This document shows positions 3,177 to 59,499 of a stretch of DNA of 64,000 nucleotides, piece by piece. The stretch is taken from positions 608,001 through 672,000 of the forward strand of contig CAVYKI010000003.1 of assembly GCA_963769025.1 (NCBI GenBank), written 5' to 3'. The stretch comes from an uncultured Verrucomicrobiae bacterium. Its GTDB lineage: Bacteria > Verrucomicrobiota > Verrucomicrobiia > Chthoniobacterales > Chthoniobacteraceae. A program made the position numbers and the translations under genes. The notes under the pieces were generated by a model. That model had not been told where the DNA came from and made no database searches. It saw only the letters and a program-made list of their open reading frames with translations. How positions within the stretch are numbered: position 1 is the stretch's first letter; each line of letters starts with the position of its first letter.

Positions 3177-3563
3177 ATGAAGACCGACCTGATCCACCTC
3201 GCCGTGAACGGCACGCTCATGCGCGGACTCGAACTGAATGGAAATCTGCTCGCTGTCGGCGCGGAATTCGTCCGCGAAGACGCGACCGTGCCTGCCTATC
3301 GTCTGTTCTCGATCAACGACCGCCATCCAGGGATGTATCGCGTCCGCGAGGGCGGCGTCGCGGTCGCGGTGGAAGTGTGGGCCGTCCCGCCAGCCGGACT
3401 TGCCTCGGTGCTCCTGGCCGAGCCGCCGGGCCTCACGATTGGAAAGGTGCGGCTCGCGAGCGGCGCGGAGACGCTCGGTGTCCTCGCGGAGCCGATCCTC
3501 TGCGAAGGCCAGCGCGAGATCACTTCGCACGGCGGCTGGCGCGCCTACTGCGCCGCAAAATAA
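3177..3563 (+). CDS. Stand-alone allophanate hydrolase C-terminal-like / gamma-glutamylcyclotransferase-fold protein
   Basis: LAVNGTLMRGLELN...YRLF...PG...VEVW...EPPGLTIGKVRLASG...ITSHGGWRAY resembles the AtzF C-terminal domain. Confidence 0.8.
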   Translation: MKTDLIHLAVNGTLMRGLELNGNLLAVGAEFVREDATVPAYRLFSINDRHPGMYRVREGGVAVAVEVWAVPPAGLASVLLAEPPGLTIGKVRLASGAETLGVLAEPILCEGQREITSHGGWRAYCAAK

Positions 3564-5005: not shown

Positions 5006-5691
5006 GAGATGAAAAGCCGCTCGTCCGCAAACTCGTGGCGCATCGAGGCGATTTCGAGCAGCGGGTCGAAGGTTCCCGCTCCATCGCGTGTCACCGCGAG
5101 CGATGCGGCGATGGTCGCCTCCGCCCGCGCGAGCGCACCGCGGAGGACGCGCTGGCAGCCGTCCTGGCCGATGCGGATCAATTTCAAGGACGCGCTGCAC
5201 ACGCCGGCGACACTTTGGTAAAACCACGCCCCGAGCGCCGCGGAGATCGGGAATCCCTCGCCCGCCGCCTGCACCGCGCAGACCATGAGGTGATGCCCGT
5301 GCGCCTCGCCACGCGCGACCGCCGCGGCTAACTCCGCGTAGCGCGGCAGTTCATTCACCGCGCGCAACGCCGCAAGCCGCCGACGTCCGATGGTCACGCT
5401 CGCCTCGCGGGCTTCCTTCGCGAGCTTCCACGCGGATATCTCGCGATCCACGGCGCACAGGCCCGGCAGATCATCGGCGGATTCGTGAGCGAAGCGGAGA
5501 TACGGCAACTCCAGCGCGGCGAGCGCAGGGAGCAGGTGTTCCGCCACAAACAGGCGCAGCCCATTCTCGTCACGCACGCCCGCGAGCCGCGCGTATTCCT
5601 CAAAGCCCAGCGAGTGCGCATATGCCCCCGTGGGGAAGAGCGCGTCGCTCGTCTGGAGAAGCGCCGGCAGCCACGCGAAATCAGGATTCAT
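5002..5691 (-). CDS. ureF: Urease accessory protein UreF
   Basis: [17 protein letters not shown]-terminal [11 protein letters not shown]. Confidence 0.95.
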
Positions 5692-6109
5692 GGCCGTGAG
5701 TTTTCGCGAATGGGACAAACACCCGCTCGCAGGCGATGAACGGAATTTTCTCCCGCTCGAAAAGCTGCCGCAGCGCCGGATCATCCGGCACGCGGATGCA
5801 GTCGTCGGTGACCTGGATGGGGAAGTGCAGGTTTCCAATCGTCCACCCGAGCCGCGCGACAGGCGCCGCCTTCGCGATGAGCGCGACTTCCAGCACAGGC
5901 TCCGCCGTTTGCTCGATGCAATAAACGGCCGTCGGCGCGGCAAAAAACACCGCGCCATCCCCGAGCGGCCCGCTGAGGTCGAAACCAAACTCCTCGCCGT
6001 CCTCGGCAACTCCGCGCCAGCGGCGCTTCGCGAGCATCTGTCGCTCGGCGCGCAAAGCGATGCGAGGAAGCGACGGAACCTCGGCGAGCGCGGCGTGGAT
6101 GAGCGTCAT
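5681..6109 (-). CDS. ureE: Urease accessory protein UreE
   Basis: [22 protein letters not shown], His-containing tail; operon position. Confidence 0.88.
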
Positions 6110-6113
6110 GCGC

Positions 6114-7926
6114 TCAGAACAGGAAATACCGCTGCGCCATCGGGAGCACGCTCGCGGGCTCGCAGGTGAGCACGCGGCCGTCGGCGCGAACGGTGTAGGT
6201 CTCGGGATCGACCTCGATGTGCGGCGTGGCGTCGTTCCAGACGAGGTGCTTCTTCGTCACGTTGCGCGTTCCCTTCACGGCGACGAGGCGCTTGCCGAGC
6301 TTCAGCGAATCGAGTGCGCCGCTTTCCAATCCGGCACCGCTGACGAACGTGACACTGGTCGAAAATTTCGCGCGGCCGTGCGCCGCAAATTGCGGGCGGT
6401 AGAACATCGGCTGCGGCGTGGGGATGCTCGCGTTCGGGTCGCCCATGTTCGCCATCGCGATGAGGCCGCCTTTCAAAATCACCTCGGGCTTTACGCCGAA
6501 GAACGCGGGCTTCCACACGACGAGGTCGGCGAGTTTGCCGGGCTCGATGCTGCCGACTTCGTGCGCGATGCCGTGGGCGATGGCGGGATTGATCGTCGTC
6601 TTCGCGATGTAGCGCAGCGCGCGAAAGTTGTCGGCGGGGAAGTGGAACCGCCAAGGCGCCAAGACGCCAAGATGGGAAGATGTGGTGCCAACGACACTGC
6701 TGCCTTTCTCTTCCTTGGCGTCTTGGCGTCTTGGCGGTTCCAAAGTGCCAAACTGCACCTTCATCTTGTGCGCCGTCTGCCAGGTGCGCGTGATGACTTC
6801 GCCGATGCGGCCCATCGCCTGCGAATCGCTCGACATGATCGAGATCGCGCCGAGGTCGTGCAGCATGTCCTCGGCGGCGATGGTCTCGGGGCGGATGCGG
6901 CTCTCGGCGAACGCGACGTCCTCGGGGATCTTCGAGTCGAGGTGATGGCACACCATGAGCATGTCGAGATGCTCGGCGATGGTGTTCACGGTGAACGGCC
7001 GCGTCGGGTTTGTGGACGACGGCAGCACGTTCAGCTCGCCGCAGACGCGGATGATGTCCGGCGCGTGGCCCGCCGCCTGCGCCTTCGCTGTGGAAGGTGT
7101 GGATCGTGCGGCCCTTGAACGCGGCGAGCGTGGCTTCGAGGAAGCCGGCTTCGTTCAGCGTGTCGGTGTGGATGGCGACCTGCACGTCGAGTTCGTCCGC
7201 GACGCCGAGGCAGCAATCGATCGCCGCGGGCGTGGTGCCCCAGTCCTCGTGCAGCTTCAGGCCGATGACTCCCGCGCGCACCTGCTCGCGCAGCGGCTCG
7301 GGCGTGGAGCAGTTGCCTTTGCCGAGGAAGCCGATGTTCATCGGGTATTCGTCTGCGGCTTCGAGCATGCGGCGGATGTTCCAGATGCCGGGCGTGCAAG
7401 TCGTGGCATACGTGCCGTGCGCAGGGCCGGTGCCGCCGCCGATCATCGTGGTCACGCCGCTCGCGAGCGCGTGCTCGATTTGCTGCGGGCAGATGAAGTG
7501 GATGTGCGTGTCGATCGAGCCCGCCGTGACGATGCAGCCCTCGCCCGCGATGACCTCCGTCGCCGCTCCGATGATCATCGTGATCCCCTGCTGGATGCCG
7601 GGATTCCCCGCATGCCCGATGCCGACGATGCGCCCGCCCTTGATGCCGATGTCGGCTTTGATGATGCCCTGCACCGCGTCGAGAATCAGCGCATTCGTGA
7701 TGACGAGGTCGAGGCACTCCGCGTCGAGCGCCGTGGACGACTGGCCCATTCCGTCGCGGATGACTTTGCCGCCGCCAAATTTCACCTCATTCCCGTACCC
7801 GCCGCTCTCCGCGATGAGGTCGCGCTCGACCTCGATGAAAAGCTCCGTGTCCGCCAGTCGCACACGATCGCCTACCGTCGGCCCGAACATGTCTGCATAC
7901 TGGCGGCGGGTGAGCGTGAGTGGCAT
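6114..7926 (-). CDS. ureC: Urease alpha subunit; one frameshift near 7070 (probable sequencing indel) and an in-frame repeat-element insertion at 6643-6742
   Basis: [68 protein letters not shown] across two frames. Confidence 0.97.
6643..6742. repeat. Palindromic element copy 1 (29-bp arms, 42-bp spacer) inside ureC
   Basis: tggaaccgccaaggcgccaagacgccaag ... cttggcgtcttggcgtcttggcggttcca, one mismatch between arms. Confidence 0.95.
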
Positions 7927-7937
7927 GGCTATTTGGG

Positions 7938-8028
7938 TGAACCGCCAAGGCGCCAAGACGCCAGGAGATGCAGGCGACAGAAATTGTTTCCTCCTCCAGA
8001 CCTTGGCGTCTTTGCGTCTTGGCGGTCA
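7938..8028. repeat. Palindromic element copy 2, between ureC start and GxxExxY stop
   Basis: tgaaccgccaaggcgccaagacgccagg ... ccttggcgtctttgcgtcttggcggtca. Confidence 0.93.
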
Positions 8029-8035
8029 CTCATAT

Positions 8036-8455
8036 TCAGTTCGAGCAGATGACGCGTTTGATGCCGTCTTTGATGAGTGGGACATTAAAGTTAATGAGCA
8101 ATCCGAGGCACCGGCTGCTCAGTTTGAGGTAAGTCAGCATCTGTGCCTTGTGGACGGGGAGCAGGTTTTCGACGGCTTTCAGTTCTACGATGAGCTTGCC
8201 CTCGACCAAAATATCGAGGCGGAGACCTGCCTCGATTTTTACGCCATCGTAAAGCACCGGCAGAGCGACTTGCCGATCCACTTTCAAACCGCGCTTGATG
8301 AGTTCGTGCGCAAGGCAAACTTCATACACGCCTTCGAGCAAACCCGGCCCGAGTTCCGTGTGAACCTTGAACGCTGCATTCACCACGGCTTTTGCCAGCA
8401 CGTCCAACTCCTCTTCGGGCTCCTCCCTTGGCGTCTTGGCGTCTTGGCGGTTCAT
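8036..8455 (-). CDS. GxxExxY family PD-(D/E)xK nuclease-like protein
   Basis: VHTELGPGLLEGVYE (GxxExxY), RLDILVEGKLIVELKA, AQMLTYLK, GLLINF; visibly more AT-rich than neighbours; ATG overlaps the ureB TGA. Confidence 0.95.
   Translation of the reverse strand: MNRQDAKTPREEPEEELDVLAKAVVNAAFKVHTELGPGLLEGVYEVCLAHELIKRGLKVDRQVALPVLYDGVKIEAGLRLDILVEGKLIVELKAVENLLPVHKAQMLTYLKLSSRCLGLLINFNVPLIKDGIKRVICSN
8427..8454. repeat. Single repeat arm (copy 3) encoding the GxxExxY N-terminus
   Basis: cttggcgtcttggcgtcttggcggttca; minus strand reads [10 protein letters not shown]. Confidence 0.93.
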
Positions 8456-8766
8456 CAAAGTTTCCCGTTCACCTTCGCGTTGAGGCCAAAGACTTCGCGC
8501 GCACCGCTGAGCGCGACGAGTTCCACGTCACGCGTGTCGCCCGGCTCGAAGCGGACGGCGGTGCCGGCCGGAATGTTGAGGCGGAATCCGCGCGCGGCTG
8601 CGCGGTCGAAGGCGAGCGATTCATTCACCTCGTAGAAATGGAAGTGGCTGCCGATCTGGACTGGCCGGTCGCCGGTGTTGGCGACTCGCACGACTTTGGT
8701 CGCGAGCGTGAGATTCGCCGGGAGTCCCGCGGGATCGTCGGCGACGATGATTTCTCCGGGGATCAT
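8455..8766 (-). CDS. ureB: Urease beta subunit
   Basis: [39 protein letters not shown]. Confidence 0.97.
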
Positions 8767-8777
8767 CGCTGACAGGT

Positions 8778-8872
8778 TGAACCGCCAAGACGCCAAGGCG
8801 CCAAGATGGCAAAAATGCCAAAAGGCGTGCCGTTGCCCGAAAATCTTGGCGTCTTGGCGTCTTGGCGGTGAA
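8778..8872. repeat. Palindromic element copy 4, between ureA and ureB
   Basis: tgaaccgccaagacgccaaggcgccaagat ... atcttggcgtcttggcgtcttggcggtgaa. Confidence 0.95.
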
Positions 8873-8881
8873 AAATCATGT

Positions 8882-9184
8882 TTAGCGGATCGGATTGTGA
8901 ACCGTGACGAGTTTTGTGCCATCGGGGAACGTGGCCTCCACCTGCACCTCGTGGATCATTTCCGGGATGCCTTCCATCACGTCGGCGCGTGTGAGGATGG
9001 TCGTGCCGTGACTCATCAAGTCCACCACGGAGCGGCCATCGCGGGCGCCTTCCATGATCTCGTAGGAGATGATGGCGATGCTCTCGGGGTAGTTCAGCTT
9101 GAGGCCGCGTTTCTGGCGGCGGCGCGCGAGGTCGGCCGCGACGACGATGAGGAGCTTCTCGGTATCGCGCGGCGCAAGGTGCAT
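8882..9184 (-). CDS. ureA: Urease gamma subunit
   Basis: [36 protein letters not shown]. Confidence 0.97.
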
Positions 9185-9188
9185 CGAG

Positions 9189-9770
9189 TTAGAGGACGCC
9201 GAGCCCGATCAGGACCGCGACGGAAAGGATCGCGGCACCTGCTGCGCGGATGACGCGCTGCTGCGCAATGCGCTGAAGTGCGAGACCGCCGCTCACACCG
9301 AGGACGTGCAGAAGCGCGGTCGCGAGGTGGAAGCCCATCACCGTCTGAAACCCGGCGGCGTTTGCGGGAATCTCGCTGCCGTGTGCCTGGCCGTGAAACA
9401 GCGCGGCGACCGCGACCGCAGCGGCGCTCGCTCCGAGCGGAAGGCGCGCGGCGAAGGCAACCACTGCGCCCAGCCCGATGACGCTCGCGAGAATCGCCGG
9501 CTCCACGAACGGCAACCGGAGCCCGTTCATTCCCATCGCAGCTCCCGCGGCCATCGCGCCGACGAACGACAGCGGCAGCAGCCACAGCGCGCGCTTTCCG
9601 AGCTGCACCGCCCAGAGGCCGACGGCGACCATCGCCAGGATGTGGTCGAGCCCGGTGAAAGGATGCGCGAGGCCCCAGCCGATTCCGCCGACCTCCGCGC
9701 CATGCCCAGGATGGGCGTGGGCGAGCGTGGGGACGAGTGCAAGGGCAAGGGCGAGGCGGGCGTGTTTCAT
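9189..9770 (-). CDS. ureJ: HupE/UreJ nickel transporter
   Basis: [32 protein letters not shown]. Confidence 0.92.
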
Positions 9771-9875
9771 GCGGGCAGGTTTAAGCGAATTCGCGTGGAA
9801 ATGTGAACCACGAACACGTGCGACCGCAAAGATGCCGCGTGGCATGAAACGGCGCGGAGCAGAAGATCGGCGAGA

Positions 9876-10834
9876 TCATACGGTGAGATGCCGCTTCACC
9901 ACTTCATCGGTCAGCGCTGCGACAGGCCCGGACGCCACGACCGTGCCGCGATCCATGATCGCGAAGACGTCGGCAAGCTCGCTGCAAAAATCGAGATACT
10001 GCTCGACGAGCAGGATGCTCATCTTGGCTTCGCCGTGGAGCCGCTGGAGCGCGGAGCCGATCTCGTCTCCGAGCCTCGTTCCCTCGGGCTGCTGCCTGCG
10101 GAGCTGGTCGATGCATTCGGCGAACCGGTTGAACATCGCGGGATGTTTTTCGACGCCTTCGCGCAGCAGGACGGTGATGGTTTCGCTGACCTCCGCCAGC
10201 AGCGGCGAATCCGGGCGTTCCCTCGTTGCGATAGCGTCTTCAGCGACTGGTTGATCTCGGCAAGCAATGCCGGGCTCATTGTGGTGGCCGCCGCGGCGGA
10301 GGAGCTTAATGGCATCGCCGATCTGGTCGATGATGTTGGGCTGAATGCCTTCGGTCGGCTCGTCGAGGATGAGGATCTTCGGCTCGGTGAGCAGCGCGCG
10401 GCCGATGGCGAGCTGCTGCTGCTGGCCGCCGGAGAGCATGCCGCCTTTGCGCGGCAGGAATTCCTTCAGGATCGGGAAGAGGCTGAAGACGCGGTCGAGG
10501 CTGCCGTTCGATCTTTTTGCCGAGCGCGATGGCGCCGATGTGCAGGTTCTCCTCGACGGTGAGCTGCGGGAAGATGTCGCGCCCTTGCGGGACGTAGCCG
10601 ATGCCGGCGGCGGCGCGCGCCTCGGAGGAGAGCTTGGTGATGTCCTGGCCGTCGAGCGTGATGCGGCCGGCGCTCGGCTTCATCACGCCGGTGATGCTGC
10701 GCAGCGTGCGAGGTCTTGCCGACGCCGTTGCGGCCCATGAGGCAGAAGACCTTGTGGTCCGGCACCTCGAAATCAACGCCGCGCAGGATGCGGCTGCCGC
10801 CGATGGAGAGTTCGATGGATTCTACCTTCAGCAT
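9876..10834 (-). CDS. urtE: Urea ABC transporter ATPase UrtE (frameshifted; roughly 75-aa insertion)
   Basis: GRNGVGKT, YVPQGRDIFPQLTVEENL, LSGGQQQQLAIGRAL, LDEPTEGIQPNII, LLVEQYLDF. Confidence 0.88.
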
Positions 10835-10837
10835 GGT

Positions 10838-11621
10838 TCAGTGGGTGCGGGCCTTCCGGCCGAGATAGACTTCGATGCACGCGTTCGTCGTTCTGCACTT
10901 CATCGACCGGGCCTTCGCAGAGGACGCTGCCCTGGTGGAGCACGGTGACTTTGCGGCCCGGCGGCGATCTGCCGGACGAAGACCATGTCGTGCTCGATGA
11001 CGACGATGGTGTGCTTGCCGGCGAGGCAGAGGAGCAGTTCGCCGGTCTTGTGCGTTTCCTCGTCGGTCATGCCGGCGGCGGGTTCATCGACGAGGAGCAG
11101 CTTGGCGTTTTGCGCGAGGAGCATGCCGATCTCCAGCCACTGCTTCTGGCCGTGCGCGAGCGCGCCGGCCTTCCAGTCGCGCTGTTTCGTCGAGATTGAT
11201 CGTCTTGAGGATCTCGTCCATCCGGTCGCGTTCGGCGCTGTTCGGCTTGTGGAAGAGGCTCGCCCAGACGCCGCGGCTGCCCTCGAGGCTGAGCAGCAGA
11301 TTTTCCCAGACCGTGTGGTCGGTATAGACCGTGGGCGTCTGGAATTTCCGGCCGATGCCGAGCCGGTAGATCTGGTACTCGTTCATCCGCGTCACGTCGT
11401 GCGCGCCCTCGAATTCGATCGTGCCCGTGTCGGGCTTGGTGCGGCCGGTGATGAGATCGAGGAAGGTCGTCTTGCCCGCGCCGTTCGGCCCGATGACGGT
11501 GCGCAGTTCTCCCTCATCGAGGTAGAAGTTGAGGTTCGTGATGGCCTTGAAGCCGGCGAACGCCTTGTTCACGCCCTCGGCGGCGAGGAGAAATTGTTCG
11601 TTGGGTGGAATCGATCTTCAT
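10838..11621 (-). CDS. urtD: Urea ABC transporter ATPase UrtD (frameshifted)
   Basis: GPNGAGKTT, GIGRKFQTPTV, LVDEPAAGMT, VIEHDM, EVYLGR. Confidence 0.9.
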
Positions 11622-12768
11622 GGCTCCACGGCAGACTTGTCGGACAGGGCGGGTTCAGGCTCGCCGGCTTTTCGTCTGGCAAACACGCCGCGCAACTGCG
11701 CGGGCAGGCCGACGATTCCCTTGGGCATGAAGAGCACGACGAGGATGAACAGCACGCCGAGGATGATGAGCCAGTAGATCGGGATAGGCGCGCGTCGCCC
11801 AGCTCTTCAGCGCGTTCACGCTGATGGCGCCGATGATCGGGCCGACGAGCGTGCCGCGTCCGCCGACCGCGCACCAGACGACGGCTTCGAGCGATTTCTC
11901 CGGCGTCATCTCGCTCGGGTTGATGATGCCGACCTGCGGGACGTAGAGCGCGCCGCCGAGCGCTCGCGATGACGGCGCACGACGACGAAGATGAAGAGCT
12001 TGTAGTTCGCCGCGGCGTAGCCGGAGAAAAGCACGCGCGTTCTCGCGAGTCGCGGATGGCGCGCTGCACGAGGCCGAACTTCGTCGCGCGTGAGCCAGCG
12101 GCAGCAGCGCATAGACCGCGACGAGCAGCGACCGCCGTGGCGATGTAGAGGCCGCGCTGCGTCGCCGGCGTCGCGCATGTCGGCGCCGAGGACGCGCTTG
12201 AAATCGGTGAAGCCGTTGTTGCCGCCCATGGTCATGTCGTTGCGGAAGAACATGAGCGCCGCGCCGTAGGTGAGCGCCTGGGTGAGGATGGAGAAATAGA
12301 CGCCCTTGATCCGCGAGCGGAAGGCGAGGAAACCGAAGACCAGCGCGAGCAGCGCCGGGCACGAGCACGACCATGAGCAGCCGCGAAGCGGAAGGACGTA
12401 GAACGGCTTCCAGAACGTCGGCAGCAAGGTGTGCCCGAGGAAGACCATGAAGTCCGGCAGCAGGTTCGGATTGTTGCCGGACTTGAAGTACTGCCCGTCC
12501 TCCCCGATCATCAGCATGAGGTGCATGCCGAGCATGTAGCCGCCGAGGCTGAAAGAAGAGCGCCTGGCCGAGGCTGAGCAGGCCGGTGTAGCCCCAGAGC
12601 AGGTCGACGCGAGATCGCGAGCAGGCCGTAGCAGAGATATTTGCCCCAGAGGTTGATCGTGAAGTTGCTGACGACGCCCGCGGCATTCAGCGCGGGCAGG
12701 ACGACCACGAGAATCACGGCGATGATGGCCGCGATCAGGAGTTCGATTTTGGAAATATTGCGCTTCAT
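11618..12768 (-). CDS. urtC: Urea ABC transporter permease UrtC (frameshifted)
   Basis: [65 protein letters not shown]. Confidence 0.9.
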
Positions 12769-12784
12769 TTTTGGGTCGTGGCGC

Positions 12785-14535
12785 TCAGCCTTCGAGGCTG
12801 CGGCTCTTGGTGACGAAGAGTCCCGCCGGCCGCCATTGGAGGAAGAGGATGATGCCCACGAGGACGAGGATCTTTCCGAGCACGGGATTGCGCAGGATTT
12901 GCTGCAGGCTCTGGTCGACCACGCCGATGCCGAGCGCGCTGACGACCGTGCCGATGATGTTGCCCACGCCGCCGACGACCACGGTCATGAAGGAATCGAC
13001 GATGTAGTTCTGGCCGAGGCCCGGGCCGACATTGCCGATCTGGCGAGAGGAACGCGCCGGCGAGACCCGCGAGGCCGCTGCCGAAGGCGAAGGTGAGCAT
13101 GTTCACCCGCTCGGTGCGCACGCCCATGCAGGCGGCCATCTGGCGGTTTTGCATGACGGCGCGGATGAGCAGGCCGAGCGGAGTTTTCGTGAGCAGCAGC
13201 GCAGGTGCCGAAGATGATGAGGACGGCGAAGCCGATGACGAAGACGCGGTTCCAGCCGAAGATGACGTCGTTGACGGTCCAGTTGCCGCTGAGAGCCAGC
13301 GCGGGCTGAATAGACCTGCACGTTGTTCGCGCCGAAGATGAGGCGGAAGAGCTGCTGCAGGACGAGCGAGACGCCCCAGGTGGCGAGGAGCGATTCCAGC
13401 GGACGGCGGTAGAGGAAGCGGATGACGCCGCGCTCCAGCGCGATGCCGACGAGCGCCGCGCATGAGGAAGCTGAGCGGGCAGCGCGACGAGGAAGTAGCA
13501 GTCGAGCGCGCTGCCGGTGAGGTCCATGCCGCCGGGACGGTGAATCGGCATGCCGAAGGGCGAGAAGTGCACGAGCCCGGCGCCGAAGATGCCCTGCACG
13601 ACGTAGGTCGTGTAGGCGCCGACGGCGATCAGTTCGCCGTGCGCCATATTGATCACGCCCATGAGGCCGAAGGTGATGGCGAGGCCGATGGCGACGACGA
13701 GCAGGATGGAGCCGAGCGAGATCCGCGGAAGCCGGTGCCGATCGCGTTGACCATCTTGACGTGCGATTCGACCGACTTCAGCGCGGCTTGCGCGGCCGTG
13801 ACCACCTCCGGCTCGCCTTCGCTGTCCTTGATGAGCTGCTTGAGAAAGTCGCGGCTCGGAATGGAGCCGAGCGCCTTCAGCTCGTTCACCGCGGCGATCT
13901 GCTCGGCGGGCTCCTCGGCCTTGAGCTGGATGAGCGCGACCGCCTCGCGGTACGGCGCGCAGGACCTTGGCGTCCTTCTCGGTCTTCTCCGCGGCGTCGC
14001 AACGCGCGGGAGCTTCTCCACATCCTGGGCCATGCCGAGCGTGCTGATGGCCTGGATGCGCTTCTCGCGGTCCGGGTCGAGCGAGCGCGAGAAGATCGAG
14101 CACGCGTCTTCATCGCGCCGCGGAGATTCGGAGTCGTGCTCCGCAGTATCGACATCGGCCGCGACGAGCCGCAGCGGCTTTCCGTCCGCGTCCTGAGCAG
14201 AGGCTTGCCGTCATCCACGCGGAACGCCGCCTGCGCGTCCTCGCCGTCCTTTTCCCCGCCGAGCGTGACCGGGATTTTCTGCTGCCGTCGCGCCTTGTAA
14301 ATGAAAATGCGCGTCCTCCTTCCACGCGTCGAGCAGCGCGCGGATGATCGAGTCATCCGCCCGGCCGATGAGGCTGCTGATGAGCGCGACCTTCTTCTCG
14401 TCGTCCTCTTCGACGAATCGCCTGCGCGATGATCTGCCGGGGCGACTGCACCTGCGCACGCAGCGAGGGGCCGGCAAGCAGGACGAGCAGGGTGATGAAT
14501 TGCAGGGCACGCGATGCGGCCGCAGAAAATGTCAT
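12785..14535 (-). CDS. urtB: Urea ABC transporter permease UrtB with N-terminal helical extension (heavily frameshifted)
   Basis: [50 protein letters not shown]. Confidence 0.87.
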
Positions 14536-14548
14536 TGGGTTCGAGATG

Positions 14549-14581
14549 CGGGGCGGGTCCGTCATAGCGAACCCGCCCCGG
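14549..14581. terminator. GC-rich stem-loop between urtA and urtB (mRNA stabiliser or partial terminator)
   Basis: cggggcgggtccg-tcata-gcgaacccgccccgg inverted repeat directly after the binding-protein gene. Confidence 0.45.
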
Positions 14582-14628
14582 CGATTTCGTGGCACGCGGG
14601 CTGTGGCGCCCGCGCGTGGAATGTTCGC

Positions 14629-15941
14629 TTACTTCTTCTTCGGCTTGGCTTCCGCCGTCTTGCCTTCCTTCGGCTTGAAGGTGCCCTTGAGGAAGGGCTC
14701 GCCGTAGACGTTCTCGTACGTCTTCAGGATCTTGAACTGTCCGTCGGCCTTGGTTTCGCCGATGTAGACGTTCTTCGTCAGGTGATGGTTCTTCTGCGTG
14801 GTGACCTTGCCGCCGGGGCCGTCGAAGCTGATGCCGCTTTCAAGCGCGGCGACGACCTTGTCCACGTCGAAGCTCTTCGGCCTTCTCGACCGCGGCTTTC
14901 CAGAGGTAGACGCCGTCGTAGCTCAGCACCATCGGCGAGCAGGTCACGCGGCCTTCCTTCACGATGCCGGGGACCGTGCGTCGTCTTCAGCCAGGCCTGG
15001 AAGTCGGCGACGAACTTCTTGTTCGCCGGCGACTTGATCGACTGGAAGTAGGTCCAGCAGCCGAGCTGGCCGACGAGCTGCTTGGCCGGGCAGGCCGCGG
15101 AATTCATCTTCCGAGATCGAGAAGCGAAACGACCGGGCAGGTCTCGGCGGTGAGACCGGCGGCGGCGTATTCCTTGAAGAACGGCACGTTGGTGTCGCCG
15201 TTGAGCGTGCTGATGACGCAGGCCTTGCCGCCGGCGGCGAACTGTTTGATCTCCGCGACGATCTGCTGGTAGTCGGTGTGGCCGAAGGGCGTGTATTTGC
15301 CCGCGGAGATGATCTTGCCGGACTCGTCCTTCTTGAAGCCGCCGCCGATGTTTTCGAGCGGCACGCCCTTGCTCAGGAGATACTCGAGCAGCACGAGGTT
15401 CGTGGTCTGCGGATAGACGTAGTCGCTGCCGAGCAGGTAGAACTTCTTCTTGCCCTGCGCGAGGTAGTAGTCCACCGCCGGCGTGGCCTGCTGGTTCACG
15501 GCTTCGGCGGTGTAGAAGATGTTCTTGGAGAGCTTCTTCGCCCTCGTATTGCACGGGGTAGAAGAGCAGGCCGTTGTTCTTCTCGAACACGGGCAGCACG
15601 GACTTGCGGCACACCGAGGTCCAGCAGCCGAAGGTCACCGCGACCTTGTCCTGCTCGAGGAGCTGCTTCGCCTTTTCGGCGAAGAGCGGCCAGTTCGAGG
15701 CGCCGTCGACGACGACGGGCTCGATCTTCTTGCCCATCACGCCGCCCTTGGCGTTGATTTCGTCGAAGGTGAAGAGCAGGACGTCGCGGAGCGAAGTCTC
15801 CGAGATGGCCATGGTGCCGCTGAGGGAGTGGAGGACGCCGACCTTGACGGTGTCCTGCGCCGTGGCGACCTGCAGGGTCGCGGCGCAAAGGCCGGCGACG
15901 AGGATGGCAGGCCGGAGGGTGTTGGTTAGTTTGCTGAGCAT
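14629..15941 (-). CDS. urtA: Urea ABC transporter substrate-binding protein UrtA (frameshifted)
   Basis: [58 protein letters not shown]. Confidence 0.93.
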
Positions 15942-16122
15942 GTTGGTTGTTTTCGGGTTCGGTTGTTACGTGCGTGAGTCGTGAGGTTCGGGCGCTGGCG
16001 GCGCGAAGCAGCGCTCCGGAAATCCGGGGGCTGCGAAGCGTGCTGTTACTTTCTGCTCATGTCCTTTTCGCTCGTGGTTGGATTGGGTTTTTGGCGCCTG
16101 GTGGACGCTCGCCTCGCGGCTT

Positions 16123-54091: not shown

Positions 54092-54398
54092 CTCACCTTT
54101 CTGATCTCTCTCATGGCGATGAGGAAGAATGGCGAGAGAAACATGGGGGCGGCCTGATCGGAATACGACCGCCTAAGGCCCGGCACTGTGCGGGCCAGCG
54201 CTCATGCAGGCTGCTGCCAAATCAAGCATCGCAGCAGCATTTGCAACCGGACTGCACGCGGCAAAATCCCAACTTGGCACCCAACGCCACACGCCGTCCG
54301 AAATCCGCCACGACGTGATTCTCCCAACCCGCGCTTCCCCTCACGACGTCGGAGGCTTTTCACCTTCCTGCCCGAGGCGATCTCCGCTAGTGGCAGGA

Positions 54399-55800
54399 AT
54401 GCCGGACAGCACCGCTCCGAAACCCGCGCTCAGCCAGACCATCGGGGGCTGGCAGATCCTGTTTTACGGCCTCGGCTCCATGCTCGGCGCGGGCATCTAC
54501 GCGCTCATCGGCAAGGCGGCGGCGGGGCTCGGCAACGCGACGTGGCTCGCCTTTCTGATGGCGATGATCGGCGCGATGCTCACCGGCCTTTCGTATGCGT
54601 GCGTGGGCGGACGCTATGCGAAGGCCGGCGGCGCGGCCTACGTCACGCAGCGCGGCCTGCGCAAGCCGCTGCTCAGCTACGTGGTCGGCATCGCGGTGAT
54701 GATGAGCGGCCTCACCAGCATGGCCACCGGCTCGCAGGCGATCGTCGGGCAGTTCAGGGAACTCTTCGGCGTGGCACTCGATGACACGACGAACAAGCTG
54801 CTCTCCATCGGCATCGTCTTTCTCGTCGGCTGCGTGATCTACCGCGGCATCCGCGAGAGCATGTGGCTGAACATCGTCTGCACCGTCATCGAGGCGGCCG
54901 GCCTGCTTTTCATCATCGCCGTCGGCGTGCGCTACTGGGGCGGCGTGAACTACCTCGAATCGCCCGGCGACACCGCTGGCCGGCGGCGCGGGATCGGGCA
55001 TCACGCTCGCGCTCGTCATGCAGGGCGCGGTGCTCACGTTCTATTCGTTCATCGGGTTCGAGGACATCCTCAACGTCAGCGAGGAGGTGAAGAATCCCTC
55101 GCGCAACGTGCCCTTCGGCCTCATCGGCGCGATGATCCTCGCCACCGTGCATCTACATGGCCGTCGCCATCACCGCCGTCTCCGTCGTGCCGTGGCAGGA
55201 GCTGGCGAAAAGCGACGGCGCCGCTCATGGAGGTGGCCCGGCGTGCGGCGCCGTGGTTCGTCGGCATCAAGCCCGTCTATCGGCTTCATCACCATCTTCG
55301 CCATCGGCAACACCGCGCTGCTCAACTACCTCATGGGCTCGCGCCTGCTCTACGGCATGAGCCGCCAGGGCCTGCTGCCCGCCGTGCTCGCGAAGATCCA
55401 TCCGAAGCGCCACTCGCCGCACGTCGCCGTCGCCGTGCTCTTCGGCATCGTCTCGCTGCTCATCCTCAGCGGCGGCGTGAAGCAGCTCGCGGAATCCACC
55501 GTGCTGCTGCTGCTCTCGGTCTTCACGGTCGTGAATGTCTCGCTCGTCGTGCTCAAGCGCCGCCCCGGCGAGCCGCGCGGCGGATTCGAGCCGCCGCATG
55601 ATCGTGCCCGTGCTCGGCGCGCTGGTCTGCGCCTCGCTCATCGTCGTCCGCGTGCAAAGTCGCGCATCACCAGCGCCGACACCGCGCAGCGCACCGCGCC
55701 GCTCATCGCCGGCGCGATCATCCTCGATCAGCCTCGTGCTCTACACGGTGCTCAAGCCGAAGACCCAGGTCGCCGATCCCAGCCTCCGGCGGACGGATGG
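54399..55800 (+). CDS. APC family amino acid permease (frameshifted; end approximate)
   Basis: GSMLGAGIY, AGGAAYV, FYSFIGFED, EEVKNP, SRLLYGMSRQGLLP. Confidence 0.87.
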
Positions 55801-55874
55801 GAATCGCAACCTAGACCGCTCGCATTGTCCGGTTAGCGTGAGTGCCAGACTTCACCCACGTCCCCGTCCACTCC

Positions 55875-57558: not shown

Positions 57559-57685
57559 TCGGGAGTGCCTGCGCCAGCGATCCTGGCAGCTCCGAGATTC
57601 CAGCCAGTCACGTGCTCAGGCGGCGGCGTTCCTCAAGGTACGCGCGCACGAATGACTCCAGCGGCTGGTCTGTGCGCACGAGGCG

Positions 57686-58489
57686 GTGCAGTTCACCCCC
57701 GACCTCATGCCGGGCGACATCATCGGCACCGACGTGCTGGAGACGAATTCCGCCACCGGCGAAAAGGAGTTCCGCTTCATCCGCGGCCCCATCTTCTGCA
57801 ACCTGCTCCTCGCCGACGAAATCAACCGCACGCCGCCGAAAACGCAGGCCGCGCTGCTCGAGGCGATGCAGGAGAAAATGGTCACCGCCGGCAACACCTC
57901 CTACACGCTCGAGGAGCCGTTCTTCGTGCTCGCGACGCAAAATCCCATCGAGCAGGAAGGCACCTACCCGCTCCCCGAGGCGCAGCTCGACCGCTTCATG
58001 TTCAACATCTGGGTGGACTACCCGCTGCCGCACGAGGAGGAGGAAATCCTCCGCGCCACGACCGGCGGCGCCCGCGTCGAGCCGAAGCCCGTGCTCACGC
58101 AAGCCGACGTCCTCCAGCTCCAATCCGTCGTCCGCAAAGTCCCGGTCTCCGATCACGTCATCAAATACGTCACCCGCCTCGTCGGCGCGACACGCCCGCA
58201 GAGCGAAGGTGCGCCGGAAGTCACCAAGACCTACGTGAGCACCGGCGCCGGCCCCCGCGCCGGCCAGTATTTGATTTTGGCGGCAAAGGCCATGGCCATC
58301 CTCGAAGGCCGCATCCATGTGAGTTGCGCCGACATCCGCCGCGCCGCGCCGCCCGTGCTGCGCCACCGCATCCTCACGAATTTCGCCGCCGACTCCGAGG
58401 GCCTCACGCCGCTGTCGATCGTGAAGAAGCTCATCGAGCAAGTCCCCGAGCCCGGCGCGGAAGCCTACGTCACCGCCGCCGCGAAATGA
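57686..58489 (+). pseudogene. moxR: MoxR AAA+ ATPase, 5' truncated (no Walker A)
   Basis: Similarity starts at [55 protein letters not shown]. Confidence 0.8.
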
Positions 58490-58526
58490 GGCTGGCTCGA
58501 CTTCGTGGCGAAACGTCCGGGCCGCC

Positions 58527-59499
58527 TCACTTCACGAGCCAAAGGCGCGCCACGCCGCCCGGCTGAAAACCGGCGGCTGCGCCATCGAGCGTGAGGGTGA
58601 CCTTGCCGAGATTGCCCGCCATTTTCGCCACCAGCACGCTGCCTGTGACCGGCGCTGCTGGTCGGCTTGCGATCCACTCCGGCGGGAGCGACACGGACCT
58701 TCTGCCCGGCCTTCAACTGACGCGCGATTTCGCCGCTCTCCTGGAAAAGCGTGAGGTCCAGTGCGCCGCCCTCGATCCTGTCCACGTAGCCCGGCGCGCC
58801 TTCCTCGGCGATGCGCTTCGCGTGAAGCGCCTTCTGCGCGTCCTGAAATTTGAGCAGGCTCGCGTCGTCGAGAAACACGTTCCAACACATCTGCACCTTG
58901 CCCTTTCCGACGCCGTGGGTCTCGGTGCGGAGTTTGTCGCCGACCTTGATGTCCGCAAACTTCGCAGGCTGCCCGTCCTTCCAATACTTCGTCTCCGCAT
59001 CGGTCGAAATGACGATGCCCTTTTCGCGGACGTAGCTCTTGTCGGCGTTCGCCTGCGTGACAGTGAGCGCGCCCGAGCCCGCGTCGATCGCATCCACGTG
59101 GAAGTACTCCTTGTGGCCGTTCATCATGTTCATCTGGTCCTGGATGTAGGTCAGCCACGTCCACTCGCCGTTCGCGGCTTCATGCATGCGGAAAATCGCG
59201 CGGGCGCCGATGCGGAAATCCTGCAAATCGCCGAACGACGCGTGATGCAGCAGTTCCGCGTAAGGCAGCACCGTAAAACTCATCACCTCGTCGGTGCCTT
59301 CCTTGCGAAACTTCCCCGTGCGCGTTGCGAGGTCGACGCTGATCAGCTCACCCCAGATCCGCCGCATCGCATCCGTGGGGACGATGACTTTGCCGGGGCT
59401 GATTTTCAGCACGGGCTTCGCCGGAGCCGCCGGATCAGCGGCGAGGAGGAGTGTCGGAAAGAGCGCGAACGCGGTGAGGAGTGAGGTGATCGTTTTCAT
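58527..59499 (-). CDS. Secreted hypothetical protein with repeated beta modules (frameshift near 58660)
   Basis: Signal peptide MKTITSLLTAFALFPTLLLAAD; DLQDFRIG / FADIKVGD / QLKAGQKV repeats. Confidence 0.7.

Follow-up and report, generated by a model that had tools for sequence, protein, structure and literature searches.

An in-frame hairpin insert in a permissive loop of the urease alpha subunit of an uncultured Verrucomicrobiota bacterium, with arms shared with a GxxExxY gene

How does the gene of a conserved metalloenzyme come to hold a palindrome of 100 bp inside its coding sequence, and what becomes of the protein? The question is raised by the urease operon of the 64,000-nucleotide stretch of DNA analysed here (the window; 65% G+C), for which an initial annotation had described a palindromic element lying in frame in the urease alpha subunit, UreC, with a linker of 38 residues in place of about 9. 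This description is borne out by the 29-nt arms of the element and by its stop-free translation. The insert is real, recent and in frame, it lies in a permissive loop of UreC, and similar inserts occur in scattered relatives; its arms tie it to a widespread gene cassette of unknown function. We think it probable, if far from settled, that the element is a hairpin without an open reading frame (ORF), that it belongs to a family linked to GxxExxY genes, and that it was acquired recently and in frame and is read through in a variable loop of the enzyme.

The urease genes lie on the minus strand of the window in the order hupE/ureJ, ureA, ureB, a GxxExxY gene, ureC, ureE, ureF, ureG and ureD (Table 1), and the urtA-E genes are found upstream of this cluster, at about 9.9-16 kb.

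Table 1. Positions of the urease-operon features discussed in the text (window coordinates)
Feature	Position	Strand	Basis or remark
hupE/ureJ	9192-9845	minus	family match
ureA (urease gamma subunit)	8882..9184	minus	family match
third complete hairpin copy	8778..8872	.	ureA-ureB spacer; 27-nt arms, 96% complementary, 35-nt loop
ureB (urease beta subunit)	8455..8766	minus	family match
single arm copy	8427..8454	minus	5' end of GxxExxY gene
GxxExxY gene, 139 aa	8036..8455	minus	TIGR04256 (2.5e-43), PF13366
second complete hairpin copy	7938..8029	.	between GxxExxY gene and ureC start codon
ureC (urease alpha subunit)	6114..7926	minus	two frames, 7926..7069 and 7064..6114; NCBIfam NF009686 matches both halves; alignment with P0003
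surplus base in ureC (frameshift)	7065..7069	minus	UreC relatives P0003, P0002 and P0001 read GAGGGHAPDII there
hairpin element inside ureC	6643..6742	minus	arms 6643-6671 and 6714-6742, loop 6672-6713

A repeat search shows the ureC element to be an inverted repeat of 100 bp, with 29-nt arms that are 97% complementary and 42 nt between them; it is the longest inverted repeat of hairpin type in the 64 kb. Each arm is built from a GGAAC head followed by three tandem octamers that form one direct-repeat family. A 20-nt motif of the arm occurs 7 times in the window, where 0.02 occurrences are expected and none of 100 shuffled sequences reaches 7, and all 14 matches to a 15-nt core of the arm fall within 6649-8867. 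The repeat is restricted to the urease operon within the 64-kb window, as three complete hairpins and one single arm; besides the ureC element there are three copies, one of which overlaps the start of the GxxExxY gene, and the concentration of copies amounts to three or four in 2.3 kb. Folded as RNA, the region is predicted to form one long stem (-70.5 kcal/mol, z -8.1, with 0 of 200 shuffles as good), and folded as single-stranded DNA it gives -42.9 kcal/mol (z -7.9). Both arms of the ureC copy carry the variant head GGAACC and not TGAACC. Likeness among the copies is limited to the arms, the loops being unrelated from copy to copy, and no consistent target-site duplication is found at the flanks of the three complete copies; for these two reasons ordinary transposition is without support. 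The sequence CACTT on both sides of the ureC copy was considered as such a duplication and set aside as a chance occurrence, nothing comparable being present at the other two copies.

The minus strand from 6746 to 6633 translates without a stop into 38 residues, in the frame of the C-terminal UreC ORF (6114..7028), and the two arms give the peptides PPRRQDAK and LGVLAPWR, as had been annotated. Since each of the three frames of the minus strand runs open through the element, the lack of a stop carries little weight; it is a length that is a multiple of three that counts. Measured from G to DNFR, the linker has 38 residues in the window, whereas across many phyla its length lies between 4 and 25 residues and is most often 9 (32 of the 65 readable loci, from 80 loci taken). 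With a net length change that is a multiple of three, the ribosome would read through the element, which would add about 26-30 mostly hydrophilic residues to the protein as a flexible excursion. That the repeat was mis-joined into ureC by the assembly is scarcely credible. Although the assembly contains many indels and repeats are hard to assemble, the flanks of the element continue the ureC frame exactly, and the same type of insert is present at the same codon in proteins from independent sources (ncbi, jgi, ena).

The earlier statement that the linker contains no stop or frameshift is correct for the linker itself; however, it missed a single surplus base 323 nt upstream of the element, in the glycine-rich GAGGGHAP codons. 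Because of this base ureC was predicted as two pieces, and the source protein set has a C-terminal ORF of 304 residues (P0124). The two halves match positions 2-280 and 295-569 of NF009686 in different frames, and no full-length match in one frame was obtained. Furthermore, the urtABCDE genes show at least 11 frame changes by our own count of pieces (at least three each in UrtA and UrtB, and at least two each in UrtC, UrtD and UrtE). A possible explanation is that the whole urea-utilisation locus is decaying, that the frameshift of ureC is real, and that the hairpin is neutral debris in a gene that is itself dead or dying, in which case it would be silent on tolerance. Besides the frame changes in ureC and the urt genes, the crowding of repeat copies in the operon would agree with this, as would the uneven spread of the breaks, the genes in the 22-kb stretch between 31 and 53 kb appearing whole; with breaks so uneven, real decay of the urea locus could hold. 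However, the window's UreC is 97% identical to that of an intact relative, P0003, with no lesion other than the frameshift, and ureA, B, D, E, F, G and hupE/ureJ are whole, with full-length family matches. Genes unrelated to urea, encoding an amino-acid permease and a MoxR-type ATPase, are split as well, the urt pieces remain 75-85% identical to a relative from another family, and other assemblies contain intact UreC proteins that bear the insert. Damage that consists only of indels, in a contig as long as 1.38 Mb, is the usual signature of consensus error in long-read assemblies and favours this reading. The likeliest source of the ureC frameshift is therefore an indel made by an error-prone assembly, and we regard decay of the locus as rather unlikely.

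The history of the insert was followed in the best 120 UreC matches among proteins of at least 533 residues, a set in which disrupted or out-of-frame alleles could not appear. All of them belong to Verrucomicrobiota, several bearing the name Chthoniobacter or Chthoniobacteraceae. The loop, counted after a conserved Leu, has fewer than 14 residues in 99 proteins, 14-24 residues in 11 and at least 25 residues in 10. The closest UreC found, P0003, is 97% identical to that of the window over 553 columns with the loop removed, and it is the sister of the window's protein (support 96 in FastTree and 98 in IQ-TREE). Its loop is the 10-residue PSPDTAHAAA and constitutes an empty site in a very close relative; at this level of identity the insert of the window must be recent. 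Compared with P0003, the loop of the window has been replaced as a whole by a string of 36 residues, with a net gain of 26. On our favoured account, the hairpin would have been acquired in a loop of variable length just past the helix that follows the Ni-ligand motif of UreC.

Among the other long-looped proteins, P0001 and P0002 have arm peptides identical to those of the window and loops that are weakly similar, and the three proteins lie in three different parts of the tree. In each of the three, the arms are antisense-compatible at the peptide level (0 of 300 shuffles each). The inserts of P0011, P0012, P0036, P0037 (with three near-copies) and P0028 are similar in length and layout, and the antisense compatibility of their halves is no longer significant; they look like older, decayed copies. 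Alignment of the relatives, which the initial annotation had proposed, thus reveals the same or decayed inserts in full-length proteins from other assemblies, and the long loops of orthologues, which might have had nothing to do with the repeat, proved to be related to it. Within the 120 proteins, palindrome-type inserts occur at this loop and nowhere else. Beyond this set, one locus (L023) has at the same loop a palindrome-like insert that is of another family, and long loops are present at the same UreC site in other phyla. When the C-terminal UreC ORF was compared with genome contigs, the sole close relative among the matches listed (at least 599 stretches) was L001, which has a short loop.

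The long loops require seven changes on the FastTree tree of 121 rows, at least four of which are forced by well-supported branches, and monophyly of the long alleles is rejected by the AU test (p 5e-05, lnL difference 333.7). The latter was performed with IQ-TREE on 53 of the 121 rows, which span the clades and include all 8 distinct long alleles, the three near-copies of P0037 being left out; the group tested was named after inspection of the first tree, which weakens the formal p-value and not the pattern. The residues before DNFR are FPA in all distinct long alleles except P0001, which has LPS (n=8), and in no short allele. Simple independent insertion does not explain such a common junction among polyphyletic long alleles. 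Three readings of it remain: a single origin, after which alleles exchanged the loop by short-tract recombination; hairpins of different families inserted at one and the same nucleotide position; or selection for the FPA or LPS residues once the loop has become long.

The first of these can be extended to an account of the whole insert, in which a loop cassette of single origin passes between related Verrucomicrobia as gene conversion or homologous recombination over short tracts copies it from one ureC allele to another, a nuclease possibly assisting in a homing-like manner. Its arms would be refreshed by conversion from copies elsewhere in the genome, and each further case would need no fresh insertion. 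The shared junction, the identical arm peptides in three distant parts of the tree and the whole replacement of the loop relative to the sister protein all agree with this, and the nearly invariant flanks of the loop would permit recombination. However, outside the loop the window and P0003 differ at roughly 17 places, which are evenly spread, with no cluster by the loop. P0028 has arms of a different, unrelated family and nevertheless the same FPA junction, and the mid-length alleles P0059 and P0082 retain HAAA, as in the short alleles of their clade. Moreover, the arm families in urease spacers differ from genome to genome, which suggests local insertion. Co-conversion of the ureC loop together with the upstream GxxExxY gene was also considered and was rejected, since over the 400 residues from the spacer to the loop the similarity to P0003 is no different from that of the remaining protein. 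We therefore hold the spread of a single cassette to be possible and clearly the weaker account beside recent acquisition of a hairpin. As for the earlier suggestion that the element moves, the pattern of presence and absence allows it; however, short-tract recombination between ureC alleles fits that pattern equally well.

Is the added segment tolerated by the enzyme? P0036 and P0037, which belong to one well-supported clade, are identical at 558 of 601 positions overall and, by our own count, at about 18 of 35 within the insert, and both are in frame. An insert that has diverged so far and is still in frame points to long retention under weak constraint and agrees with a segment that is translated yet little constrained. 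An AlphaFold model of the insert-bearing P0002, computed with 102 sequences, had a mean pLDDT of 85.3 and a pTM of 0.91; a run with 80 near-identical sequences (mean pLDDT 52.9) was set aside. For residues 391-420 of the model the means of ten-residue blocks are 61, 52 and 52, between flanking blocks of 92 and 86, and past residue 420 the confidence returns to 86-97. The model superposes on Klebsiella aerogenes UreC with a TM score of 0.94 and an rmsd of 2.6. In this model, of the kind that the initial annotation had proposed as a check, P0002 is confidently predicted to retain the fold of urease, and the insert departs from it as an excursion of low confidence. By sequence, the insert site falls between residues 389 and 396 of the K. 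aerogenes UreC chain, and it appears to lie outside the three UreD-contact switch regions of the urease activation complex, as these are given in the part of PMC10121161 available to us.

The loop ranges from 4 to 38 residues across the sets, and full-length UreC proteins bearing the insert come from several independent sources (ncbi, jgi, ena). The loop is presumably on the surface of the protein, and it would seem that the insert is translated and that the enzyme still works. The annotation's tolerated insertion of about 29 residues is accordingly upheld in part: the empty site of P0003, the intact relatives with the insert, the variable loop and the retained fold of the model speak for it, whereas the frameshift of ureC and the broken urt operon had been missed, and relative to the sister allele the whole loop differs. 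We expect the peptide to be tolerated and not useful. A functional hairpin or peptide, that is, an RNA structure that governs how the ure mRNA is processed or how stable it is, or a peptide with an effect on urease assembly or maturation, could be argued from the very stable stem, from the same variant head in both arms of the ureC copy, by which pairing is kept, from hairpins at no fewer than three of the junctions between operon genes in both the window and the gammaproteobacterial locus L015, and from inserts that stay in frame within the clade of P0036 and P0037. However, with the insert absent from most relatives (99 of 120 are short-looped), with the palindrome lost in older copies, and with an insert that evolves far faster than the remaining protein, a function seems quite improbable. 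In addition, the peptide has no confident structure in the model, and a search of 5500-9500 with Rfam gave no intron family and nothing beyond one sub-threshold chance match.

The arms of the element lead to the GxxExxY gene, which stands in the spacer upstream of ureC and whose ATG overlaps the stop codon of ureB. The single arm copy makes up the first 10 codons of this gene and differs from the arms in ureC by 1 mismatch in 20. The peptide encoded by the arm, or a close variant of it, forms the N-terminus in 105 of 119 GxxExxY relatives, and its mirror image stands at the C-terminus in 25 of the 119. These relatives are 63-92% identical to the protein of the window, which is high for a comparison across phyla; the named ones belong to Verrucomicrobiota, cyanobacteria (Fischerella, Hapalosiphon), Acidobacteriota and Kiritimatiellia. 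In Nostoc sp. FACHB-152 (L063), a GxxExxY gene is located in the ureB-ureC spacer between inverted arms of 36 nt, 443 nt apart and of like build. The locus L015, from a gammaproteobacterial MAG, has the arm motif of the window between ureC and ureE and between ureF and ureG, and its ureA-ureB spacer has a related, partly nested variant of the arm. Hairpins with arms of other short tandem units adjoin urease genes in L001, L006 and L007, and a hairpin of another short tandem unit is translated just upstream of ureC in the case of P0005. We envisage a hairpin family in which each arm would consist of a short head and two or three tandem octamers, followed by the mirror image, and whose arms also bracket GxxExxY genes.

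The copy in ureC has only a 42-nt loop and lacks the GxxExxY ORF, whereas an ORF-bearing copy is found 1.3 kb upstream in the same operon. Since the arm sequence is the N-terminus in 105 of the 119 relatives, from several phyla, the 100-bp element may be read as an ORF-less hairpin that was derived from the GxxExxY cassette or mobilised along with it. The GxxExxY protein resembles PD-(D/E)XK enzymes and may have a role in moving the hairpins; the Pfam family PDDEXK_3 is given as of unknown function, with many transfers, in PMC3424549. A bolder version of our account would make the octamer-armed hairpins and the bracketed GxxExxY genes a single mobile system that crosses phyla, in which the nuclease-like protein drives the copying of hairpins into preferred sites and the ureC loop serves as a target, precise to the codon and preserving the phase, that separate lineages have had hit or converted time and again. 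We consider this unlikely, more so than decay of the locus; if it were true, the system would represent a homing-like element inside a conserved enzyme that is translated instead of being spliced.

GxxExxY proteins occur in intervening sequences of 23S rRNA. The cassette of the window and such intervening sequences, with ORFs of the four-helix-bundle (S23p) or GxxExxY type, are alike in that a small ORF lies within inverted repeats that form a long stem. However, the cassette here is in a protein-coding operon, without rRNA context, and its ORF-less version lies in a coding sequence, so that the message would be broken if the element were excised and the ends left unligated. An intein or a self-splicing intron can be dismissed. 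An intein would need more length than the ureC insert offers, Pfam gives no match to the 38-residue peptide, and no Rfam intron was detected in the region searched.

The closest parallel is the Rickettsia palindromic elements (RPE), which the portion of PMC10969869 at hand describes as in-frame inserts of about 150 bp in many genes, with a peptide thought to be compatible with the fold. Like these elements as described there, the ureC element is a multi-copy palindromic repeat that lies in frame in a conserved gene, adds a peptide and keeps the ORF, and in common with RPE it has several copies, a location within a conserved gene, to which it brings neither a stop nor a frame change itself, and an orthologue with an empty site. 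In contrast to RPE, its host belongs to Verrucomicrobiota and has 65% G+C, its size is 100 bp as against the about 150 bp given in that portion, and its arms consist of tandem octamers with loops unrelated among the copies. Furthermore, only one copy in 64 kb is inside a gene, the arms are tied to GxxExxY genes, and a single UreC loop has been hit, or has been inherited, in scattered lineages. The ureC element thus appears to work like an RPE without being one by sequence family, from which its build, host and context would set it apart.

MITEs and REP/BIME sequences are short non-coding inverted repeats that lie mostly between genes, now and then within one, and fold into hairpins in the spacers of operons, as outlined in the sections of PMC10969869 and PMC3733652 on which we draw. 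Judged by these sections, the repeats of the window resemble them as short inverted-repeat hairpins in operon spacers and at times within a gene, and the ureC element shares terminal inverted repeats with MITEs. However, it is not a textbook MITE, given its unrelated loops and the lack of a consistent target-site duplication. It has no fixed duplication, no similarity among copies over their full length and no transposase, the only linked ORF being that of GxxExxY, and no transposase or RAYT family was matched by those ORFs of the window that were scanned against Pfam or NCBIfam. Assignment to REP/RAYT was rejected for the arm head, which is TGAAC or GGAAC and not GTAG or CGTC, and for the lack of a Y1 transposase among the ORFs scanned in the window. 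PARCELs, in the extract of PMC2996958 available, are coding sequences with dyad symmetry and sporadic spread, found as tandem 25-residue domains in proteins of unknown function. Going by that extract, the ureC element shares with them a dyad-symmetric coding sequence and a sporadic distribution; in contrast to it, they are not single inserts in a conserved enzyme. In the literature searched, with most subscription journals outside, we found no description of octamer-armed hairpins, of their tie to GxxExxY or of inserts in this loop of urease.

The initial annotation had also suggested looking for peptides of the element in other conserved proteins; two peptide searches, both weak, found none. 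The sole match of the 38-residue peptide by phmmer against 1.84 billion representatives was P0123 (E 3e-05), which was discarded as a carrier, being an animal-type repeat protein that agrees in low-complexity letters only. A word-index search with a 42-residue stretch returned only the ORF of the window itself and missed even P0002, which shares the arms, so this result is not evidence of absence. A blastn comparison of the element with plasmids gave no match.

Selfish DNA in protein genes, so far reported mainly from Rickettsia, is with this insert extended to free-living Verrucomicrobia and also to an enzyme that is well studied. The relatives provide a natural series of ureases in which one loop carries 25-39 extra residues, and such a series can help in asking how much added sequence a metalloenzyme loop can absorb. 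The link between the arms and GxxExxY suggests, for a very large family without an assigned function, a testable role in the formation or movement of hairpin repeats. In practice, annotators should be warned that such hairpins, combined with indel-prone assemblies, split conserved genes. A separate observation concerns the message: in the mRNA the element would form a perfect stem of 29 bp, at which the transcript could be cut or ribosomes could stall, a feature that counts against our favoured account.

In a Competibacter metagenome-assembled genome (L023), the UreC site corresponding to that of the window's insert carries a 22-residue loop whose coding DNA is a palindrome-like, G/C-rich repeat from a family other than the window's. 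In P0005, a relative from a sister clade, the UreC prediction begins (N-terminal 45 residues) within a hairpin that has arms of a variant family and is translated immediately upstream of the true UreC start; it is the counterpart of the window copy at 7938-8029.

Hairpins were also found near the urease genes of other bacteria. In a gammaproteobacterial metagenome-assembled genome (L015), they occupy three urease spacers (8059-8228, 10306-10570 and 11742-11956), with the window's arm motif in two of the three, a related arm variant in the third, and nesting in some. Those of three other Verrucomicrobia (see the table) have arms of tandem heptamers or octamers, with differing sequences.

Features of the window and of other urease loci
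Feature	Locus	Position	Strand	Remark
ORF, 128 residues	window	3177-3563	+	adjoins urease cluster
ureC frameshift, one surplus base	window	7065-7069		codons of glycine-rich GAGGGHAP motif
Amino-acid permease	window	54177-55833		apparently frameshifted
MoxR-type AAA ATPase	window	57559-58563		apparently frameshifted
Hairpin near urease genes	L001	4254-4372		other Verrucomicrobia
Hairpin near urease genes	L006	15803-16039		other Verrucomicrobia
Hairpin near urease genes	L007	8105-8199		other Verrucomicrobia

The stop codon of ureB overlaps the start codon of the GxxExxY gene (TGATG, window 8453-8457), and thus the GxxExxY cassette directly abuts ureB. In Nostoc sp. FACHB-152 (L063 8578-9092), a GxxExxY gene lies in the ureB-ureC interval on the opposite strand, flanked by 36-nt inverted arms consisting of short tandem units.

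Owing to the surplus base, ureC of the window is in two frames. Antisense to its 5' part, the Rfam family 5_ureB_sRNA (RF02514) matches the plus strand at 7470-7762 with 77.5 bits, which probably reflects coding-sequence conservation only. Every gene of the urea transporter (urtA-E, 9876-16000) is broken into two to four frames, with at least 11 frame changes by our own count; despite these, the fragments retain 75-85% identity to relatives. Since the permease and the ATPase also appear frameshifted, the breaks extend beyond the urea genes. Relative to its profile, UrtE has an additional segment, about 85 residues long, which falls between positions 179 and 180 (about 10022-10300, minus strand) and for which a Pfam search gave no match. 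The ORF beside the urease cluster matched solely the allophanate hydrolase C-terminal domain (PF21986).
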